A stretch of DNA of 64,000 bases from Escherichia coli (GTDB lineage: Bacteria > Pseudomonadota > Gammaproteobacteria > Enterobacterales > Enterobacteriaceae). Location of the stretch: NCBI RefSeq assembly GCF_003334335.1, contig NZ_QOWQ01000010.1. One strand, written 5' to 3'. Shown here piece by piece: positions 9,914 to 10,311 of this stretch (positions are counted from its first letter, which is position 1; every line of letters begins with the position of its first letter). The notes below the pieces were generated by a model that made no database searches, was not told the DNA's origin, and saw only the letters and a program-made list of their open reading frames with translations. Position numbers and translations under genes: made by a program.

Positions 9914-10311
9914 TACTATTCCTCAAAAAACCAAAAGCGCGTTATTTACCCAAAAAGGCAACGCGTTAACTCGCAGAAAGAAAAATACAGTTCGCTATCC
10001 TACAAATTATCATTCGTCGATGTAAGGAATAGTTATGAATACAGGCATCTCAAGGCACATAAACACAAAAAAAGATTAATATTCTACTGTTTTATTTTGA
10101 CGCGGGTTGAAAGAGGCAGAATTAAAACCTCGTAAATTGAAATATATATTGATGTAGTGAATGTATCTTAGGTAAATAATATATATTATTTATTTAACGA
10201 TTTATAGCAACTCAATATTAGCCTCTCGTATAAATACACATTAGGTGATAGATTAACCTTCGCTATTTTCTCACTCTGTGTCGAATATATTTATTTCCTG
10301 AATAATTAATC

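Follow-up and report, generated by a model that had tools for sequence, protein, structure and literature searches.

We found that the 398-bp region between acrE and acrS (envR) is the wild-type divergent control region of the cryptic acrEF pump operon and of acrS, probably with four layers of control: a weak promoter, silencing by H-NS, escape from that silencing, and possible activation through a marbox. H-NS binding and repression, activation by insertion sequences (IS elements), and binding of AcrS at acrAB are based on published experiments. Our own inferences concern which sequence is the promoter, what the marbox does, and where H-NS loads. Silencing of acrEF by H-NS and its activation by IS elements were already known, and the essentials are in the literature. 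Our additions are modest: a base-level map of the region and a candidate site for AcrS at the promoter of its own gene.

The region lies at positions 9914-10311 of the 64-kb stretch of Escherichia coli DNA that we analyzed (the window). A preliminary description of this DNA, made from its sequence, had placed the gap between acrE and acrS at exactly these positions, and both the open reading frame (ORF) listing and the RefSeq annotation of identical DNA agree with it to the base. On the left is acrE (8756-9913, minus strand), the first gene of acrEF, which encodes the periplasmic adaptor. It is followed downstream by acrF (5640-8744, minus strand), placed from the ORF listing. On the right is acrS (10312-10974, plus strand), which encodes a TetR-family repressor of 220 amino acids. 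Both flanking genes were assigned from the ORF listing and the annotation. RefSeq names them acrE and acrS/envR, with a gap of 398 bp, in the identical ER1709 stretch and in MG1655, and annotates no feature inside the gap in either. The spacer has a GC content of 30.7%, contains no mobile element, and is identical to that of E. coli K-12-type genomes at all 398 positions. It is the ordinary wild-type control region of a K-12-like E. coli, with acrEF in its silent state.

We also compared the rest of the window to MG1655. There are approximately 33 substitutions over the 64 kb, and yhcE lacks the IS5 insertion that it has in MG1655 (~57114-57118 of the window). Across the 3.5 kb around the spacer the sole difference is in codon 130 of acrS (window position 10699), which is TGC (Cys) in the window and CGC (Arg) in MG1655. 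The best match to the acrS of the window among complete E. coli genomes was 99.8%, and none was 100%. Judged from this comparison, the Arg-to-Cys change is a private missense change, in the half of the repressor that binds its ligand. Elsewhere in the window, the tldD-yhdP spacer (31384-31798) contains 4.5 tandem copies (97% matches) of a 91-nt REP/BIME-like unit. These repeats break the alignment with MG1655, which suggests that the copy number of the array may differ between the two.

The spacer had been described as strongly AT-rich, and this is correct. Its GC content (30.7%) compares to 50.5% for the window, and is matched or undercut by just 0.34% of all 398-bp segments. Of the intergenic regions in the 64-kb stretch that are 80 bp or longer (28 regions, median 41.7% GC), it has the second-lowest GC content. 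The gltD-gltF intergenic region (61477-61874, 26.6% GC) is the AT-richest stretch in the window. Runs of at least 6 nt of pure A/T make up 38% of the spacer, against a window mean of 7%, placing it third of 1273 tiles. The 58-nt string that had been quoted as an example of AT-richness occurs once, at 10142-10199, and is 17% GC. One of the A/T runs is 25 nt long (10173-10197), and GC drops to 20% in 10151-10225. The AT-richest part of the spacer is the part next to acrS (10168-10311), with 20-34% GC in 50-nt windows. It is poorly conserved between genera and includes a 30-nt AT palindrome (10168-10197). Apart from the dyad at 10137-10167 (see below), the inverted repeats of the spacer are of low complexity, made of A/T, and in DNA that is not conserved.

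The spacer varies among E. coli more than its neighbors do. It was less than 95% identical in 1097 genomes; no genome fell this low for acrS or for the prmA-dusB spacer that served as a control, and one did for the 5' part of acrE. The variation is unevenly placed. Among six diverse E. coli there were 41 variable sites, 26 of them in 10094-10196 and none in 9994-10042.

We compared the spacer to orthologous regions in other genera. One genome per species was scanned with AcrS, and the loci from 15 taxa in four genera were aligned: other Escherichia including E. albertii, Salmonella (arizonae and diarizonae), Citrobacter, and Pseudocitrobacter. The acrE-acrS spacers of these taxa are 376-413 bp long and 30-35% GC throughout. 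The acrE-proximal 160 bp are strongly conserved, in blocks at 9914-9952, 9960-9970, 9987-10013, 10015-10038 and 10052-10074, and two further short conserved blocks are at 10139-10150 and 10158-10167. In contrast, the acrS-proximal 140 bp could not be aligned between genera.

The conserved part contains a probable promoter for acrE. We scanned both strands for pairs of -35 and -10 hexamers and scored the conservation of each hexamer. The proposed acrE core promoter is CTTACA-18-TAGGAT on the minus strand (9997-10026; -35 at 10026->10021, -10 at 10002->9997). Both hexamers are 100% conserved in the 15 taxa, the only promoter-like site in the spacer so kept, and there is no variation in this sequence among the six diverse E. 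coli. It matches the consensus at 8 of 12 positions and is therefore expected to be weak. This is also why a stock scan, with a threshold of 9/12, missed it. From its position and conservation, we think that CTTACA-18-TAGGAT drives acrE. Shimada et al. (2014) predicted another acrE promoter, TTGAGT-19-AATAAT (10215->10185; PMC3946193), whose hexamers are poorly conserved (0.28 and 0.62). For acrS, a consensus scan predicted the promoter TTAAAA-17-TATATT on the plus strand (10122-10150); one such site was found, compared to 1.7 expected in shuffled sequence. Conservation was 0.84 for its -10 and 0.43 for its -35. The same study gives identical hexamers for envR (PMC3946193).

If acrE is transcribed from the proposed promoter, then its 5' untranslated region would be approximately 77 nt (9914-9990, minus strand). 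A ribosome-binding site, GAGGAA (9924->9919), falls within this leader, as does a short inverted repeat, TTACC-N6-GGCAA (9946-9950 and 9957-9961), that is kept in 15 of 15 taxa. The consensus hairpin has three pairs, one of which covaries (AU in 8 taxa, GC in 4, GU in 3). The repeat might fold into a short hairpin in the RNA or be bound by a protein. We considered the leader as a riboregulator and rejected this, since it folds no better than shuffled sequence (z = -0.8) and has just the one covarying pair.

The arrangement of acrEF and acrS is that of the acrR-acrAB locus, in which the pump operon is on one strand and the gene for a TetR-family repressor is on the other. We aligned the acrA-acrR spacer of MG1655 to the acrE-proximal region with MAFFT, and the functional elements upstream of acrAB and acrEF were in register. 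The -35 is TTTACA in acrAB and CTTACA in acrEF, the -10 is TACCAT in acrAB and TAGGAT in acrEF, and the hexamers are 18 bp apart in both. From the -10 to the start codon there are 86-91 nt in acrAB and 84-89 nt in acrEF. The marbox of acrAB (ATGGCACGAAAAACCAAACA) is 26 bp from the -35, and the marbox-like sequence of acrEF (AAGGCACATAAACACAAAAA) is 25 bp from it. Pairwise alignment of the regions upstream of acrA and acrE was not significant (global z of 1.6; local score no better than for shuffled sequences). Thus, the two loci share an architecture, that is, the order and spacing of elements and the paralogy of the genes, and this is not proven sequence homology.

There are also differences between the two loci. 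The spacer is 141 bp in acrAB and 398 bp in acrEF, and acrAB is expressed whereas acrEF is silenced by H-NS. In acrAB the marbox overlaps the start codon of acrR. In contrast, acrS starts approximately 260 bp further off, behind AT-rich DNA. The promoter of acrAB also contains a 24-bp operator for AcrR and EnvR, which begins within the -35 and ends within the -10. At the corresponding position, acrE has 14 of these 24 bases, mainly the outer TACAT...TTGTA, and the dyad is reduced to 5 of 12 positions, compared to 10 of 12 in acrAB. It appears that an ancestral operator in the acrE promoter is largely gone, in agreement with the report that EnvR/AcrS acts predominantly on acrAB (PMC9780535).

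The marbox-like sequence (AAGGCACATAAACACAAAAA; 10052-10071, plus strand) is oriented backward relative to acrE, and 25 bp separate it from the -35 downstream. A prediction of 2008 had already named it a backward, class I-type marbox (PMC2453137). This is the orientation found at the class I promoters of the mar/sox/rob regulon, where the site is also 5' of the -35; the acrEF site is a candidate known here from its sequence. It agrees with 15 of the 17 specified positions of the consensus, R13 and Y14 being the exceptions. Its GGCAC is invariant in the 15 taxa of four genera, and conservation of the block containing it (10052-10074) is 0.86. The acrEF and acrAB marboxes share 14 of 20 bases, and are 139 and 142 nt, respectively, from the start codon. 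Sequences that match the consensus equally well are found 10 times in the window, compared to 6.4 expected; matches of comparable quality occur here by chance about once per 6 kb. In an acrB mutant of Salmonella, acrF increased 16-fold and ramA, marA and soxS increased; envR did not. The increase in acrF is compatible with a functional marbox and is not decisive.

The start of acrS (ATGGCAAAAAGAACCAAAG, 10312-10330) also resembles a marbox, with two mismatches, and is the counterpart of the acrAB marbox over the acrR start codon. The marbox of acrEF is located where acrAB has the start codon of the regulator gene, which suggests that AT-rich DNA, approximately 260 bp of it, came in between as the locus evolved.

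AT-richness had been called consistent with silencing by nucleoid proteins, and published data bear this out for H-NS. In genomic SELEX, the spacer between envR and acrE bound both the RpoD holoenzyme and H-NS (PMC3946193). According to papers that cite Nishino and Yamaguchi (2004) and Nishino et al. (2009), expression of acrEF rises when hns is deleted. Several papers cite such derepression for E. coli and for Salmonella, expression in the wild type being very low. We searched for the high-affinity H-NS motif, tCG(t/a)T(a/t)AATT, and found one match with a single mismatch in the spacer (10191-10200); the motif was not enriched across the window (23 matches compared to 17.7 expected). The AT-richest DNA (10168-10311) is likely to be the zone in which H-NS loads, and would also form a leader of acrS. 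Since the motif is not enriched, the argument for a loading zone comes from base composition and from the SELEX data, which have the resolution of the spacer. A text search of the literature did not confirm a link between LeuO and acrEF.

The preliminary description had called this region a hotspot for IS insertions that activate acrEF, and published insertions do map to it. We converted published positions to window coordinates by placing the A of the acrE ATG at 9913. In laboratory evolution of acrB-null K-12 strains (PMC9783932), IS1 inserted at -138 (10051), IS2 at -86/-90, and IS5 at -94 and -163 (10007 and 10076, at TTAA). The IS2 insertion duplicated its target GTAGG (PMC9783932), which is at 10003->9999 on the minus strand and overlaps TAGGAT. 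That study also cites earlier IS1/IS2 insertions at -90 and -187 of acrE, the latter at about 10100 (Kobayashi 2001). Two adaptive SNPs were also recovered upstream of acrE, G>A at -86 (9999) and T>G at -92 (10005) (PMC9783932). Together these activating mutations define a zone from 9999 to 10100. The published bases agreed with those of the window at all positions checked (G at 9999, T at 10005, and GTAGG at 10003->9999).

Several of these mutations affect the proposed promoter directly. The change of G to A at 9999 converts TAGGAT to TAGAAT, a textbook -10 up-mutation. After insertion of IS2 with duplication of GTAGG, an intact TAGGAT remains directly downstream of the element, which fits the classification of IS1 and IS2 at acrEF as fusion-promoter events (PMC9330008). 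Some of the IS events may thus build a hybrid promoter on the resident -10. The change of T to G at 10005 falls in the fully conserved spacer of the promoter (ACAAATTAT); with the -10 placed as here, it gives TAGGAT no canonical TGn extension. The authors of the evolution study ascribe both SNPs to a Nac site (PMC9783932).

The window itself has no insertion in this region, as had been stated. Its spacer has the full length of that of K-12, is colinear with it, and contains no repeats or transposase ORFs indicative of an IS element. Of 5426 complete E. coli genomes, 5215 have a full-length spacer in one piece, and 16 of the 5231 genomes with a match lack one. Natural insertions among the matches listed were outside the spacer or had deleted acrEF; that is, they had disrupted the pump and not activated it. 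In 25 of 25 genomes among the matches listed, nearly all from human isolates, an IS903B was inside the 5' coding part of acrE and the spacer was intact (for example, in strain WCHEC005784, at 1162-2130 of the locus). Strain Ec1120 has an IS1B in acrE. In strain 035152 (3288-4061 of the locus) an IS1 directly borders spacer position 338; acrEF has been deleted along with yhdV and a portion of yhdW, and all that is left is acrS with the final 61 bp of the spacer.

The proposal that the spacer contains TetR-type operators for AcrS was not established. A search for inverted repeats found no significant palindrome in the K-12 sequence, and AT-richness, which had been offered in support, is uninformative about operators and gives no support for AcrS sites. 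We did find a conserved bipartite element, TTGAAATATAyATT-N7-8-rTGAATrTAT (10137-10167), in which conserved blocks surround a variable spacer. Its right half (ATACATTCAC; 10166->10157, minus strand), which coincides with one of these blocks and is the sole operator-like sequence of the spacer, is a half-site that matches the AcrR/EnvR operator of acrAB (TACATACATTCACAAATGTATGTA, positions 710-733 of the acrA-acrR region retrieved from MG1655) at 10 of 10 positions. A match this good was found in 1.5% of dinucleotide shuffles (a chance of ~0.015). The dyad at 10137-10167 in K-12 matches at 8 of 10 positions around a 9-bp spacer, and 11% of shuffles equal it. In E. albertii, the element is a perfect 27-bp palindrome (ATATACATTCAT-ctt-ATGAATGTATAT), and in one other Escherichia the dyad is 9/10. 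These are the only two taxa in which it is significant; there is no significant dyad at the element in Salmonella or Citrobacter.

The element is located approximately at the predicted start site of acrS transcription, which makes autoregulation of acrS conceivable. AcrS and AcrR are 38% identical, and a stretch of the recognition helix (VTRGAIYWHF) is identical in the two. It is possible, though unlikely, that 10137-10167 functions as an operator of AcrS, and perhaps also of AcrR, at the acrS promoter. The gene for the regulator would then be autoregulated and cross-regulated by AcrR, control having shifted from the promoter of the pump to that of the regulator after decay of the ancestral operator. 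The AcrR operator core also has a 12-nt match (TTTGTGAATGTA) in the gltD-gltF intergenic region (61559-61570), which may well be due to chance.

We weighed other explanations for the properties of this region. Local control of the TetR type could be the main mechanism: AcrS would bind palindromes in the spacer and repress acrEF, itself, or both, as AcrR does, and the AT-richness would be incidental. The divergent position of acrS, the recognition helix it has in common with AcrR, the conserved 10-nt half-site near the predicted acrS start, and the perfect palindrome of E. albertii all point this way, as do some reviews and statements derived from RegulonDB, which give acrEF as a target of EnvR. 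However, EnvR/AcrS is described as repressing predominantly acrAB and not acrEF, binding the acrAB operator, and deletion of envR has little effect, because envR is itself silenced by H-NS (PMC9780535). In addition, the K-12 dyad is only 8/10 and those of Salmonella and Citrobacter are not significant, the arms are 9 bp apart compared to 4 bp in the acrAB operator, and the position homologous to that operator has kept little of it (14/24 bases, 5/12 dyad positions). Furthermore, deletion of hns alone derepresses acrEF, as reported in citing papers. We therefore regard local TetR-type control as an unlikely main mechanism.

It is also possible that the weak core promoter by itself explains low expression of acrEF, with AT-richness and H-NS of minor importance and with IS elements and SNPs supplying a better promoter. 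A promoter with 8/12 matches and an 18-bp spacer, selection of a single -10 up-mutation (PMC9783932), and fusion-promoter events with IS1 and IS2 (PMC9330008) are all in keeping with this. We nonetheless think it quite unlikely, because deletion of hns reportedly raises acrEF expression with no change in cis, H-NS binds the spacer in SELEX (PMC3946193), and two of the insertions (IS5 at -163 and IS1 at -138) are well upstream of the core promoter (PMC9783932). In addition, the acrAB promoter is similarly non-consensus, yet AcrB is reported to be more abundant than other pumps. Finally, the AT-rich spacer could be recent foreign DNA or could conceal an unannotated gene or small RNA, a very improbable reading. 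The polymorphism of the spacer relative to its flanks (the 1097 genomes below 95% identity) would be in its favor, as would a 77-aa ORF on the plus strand (9902-10135). However, spacers of the same length and GC content are found at the same place in four genera, indicating that these are old inherited properties and not those of recently acquired DNA, and RefSeq annotates nothing in the gap. The 77-aa ORF, which crosses the start of acrE, was rejected as a gene; its frame is broken by indels within Escherichia. A search of Rfam found nothing in the spacer at E <= 1. Within the acrE coding sequence (9627-9814, minus strand), Rfam gave a match to the Burkholderia sRNA Bcj14 that scored 39.8 bits, compared to a gathering score of 59, and this is most likely a false positive.

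Silencing by H-NS combined with a weak promoter, the reading we prefer, makes acrEF similar to other cryptic operons that are silenced by H-NS and activated by IS elements, such as fucAO with IS5. In these operons the upstream DNA is likewise AT-rich and bound by H-NS, the wild type is silent, and insertion of IS1, IS2 or IS5 within approximately 200 bp upstream turns on expression. The bgl operon is another H-NS-silenced cryptic operon that is activated by IS insertion. Unlike these operons, acrEF has a homologous, constitutive pump, AcrAB, that masks its phenotype, so that activation is selected only in acrB-deficient backgrounds. A further difference is that some of the events at acrEF appear to use the resident -10 in a hybrid promoter.

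We propose the following model for the region. A weak sigma-70 promoter, CTTACA-18-TAGGAT (10026->9997), would transcribe acrE through the ~77-nt leader. H-NS would bind the AT-rich DNA flanking and upstream of this promoter, above all in 10075-10311, and oligomerize over both divergent promoters, so that acrEF and acrS are hardly expressed under laboratory conditions. IS elements inserted between the -10 and the AT-rich tract could provide an outward or hybrid promoter and keep the resident TAGGAT. Alternatively, they could separate the acrE promoter from the DNA bound by H-NS. Point mutations could instead improve the -10. The conserved marbox-like site may permit activation of the type mediated by MarA, SoxS and Rob, and AcrS made from this locus would act mainly in trans, on the operator of acrAB.

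AcrEF serves as the main backup to AcrAB. In cells that lose AcrB, or in which it is inhibited, switching on acrEF restores resistance to multiple drugs and to solvents. The spacer between acrE and acrS thus determines how easily strategies based on efflux inhibitors are bypassed. The map presented here, with the promoter hexamers, the marbox, the decayed operator, the half-site, and the coordinates of the IS insertions and SNPs, makes it easier to read activating mutations in sequenced isolates.
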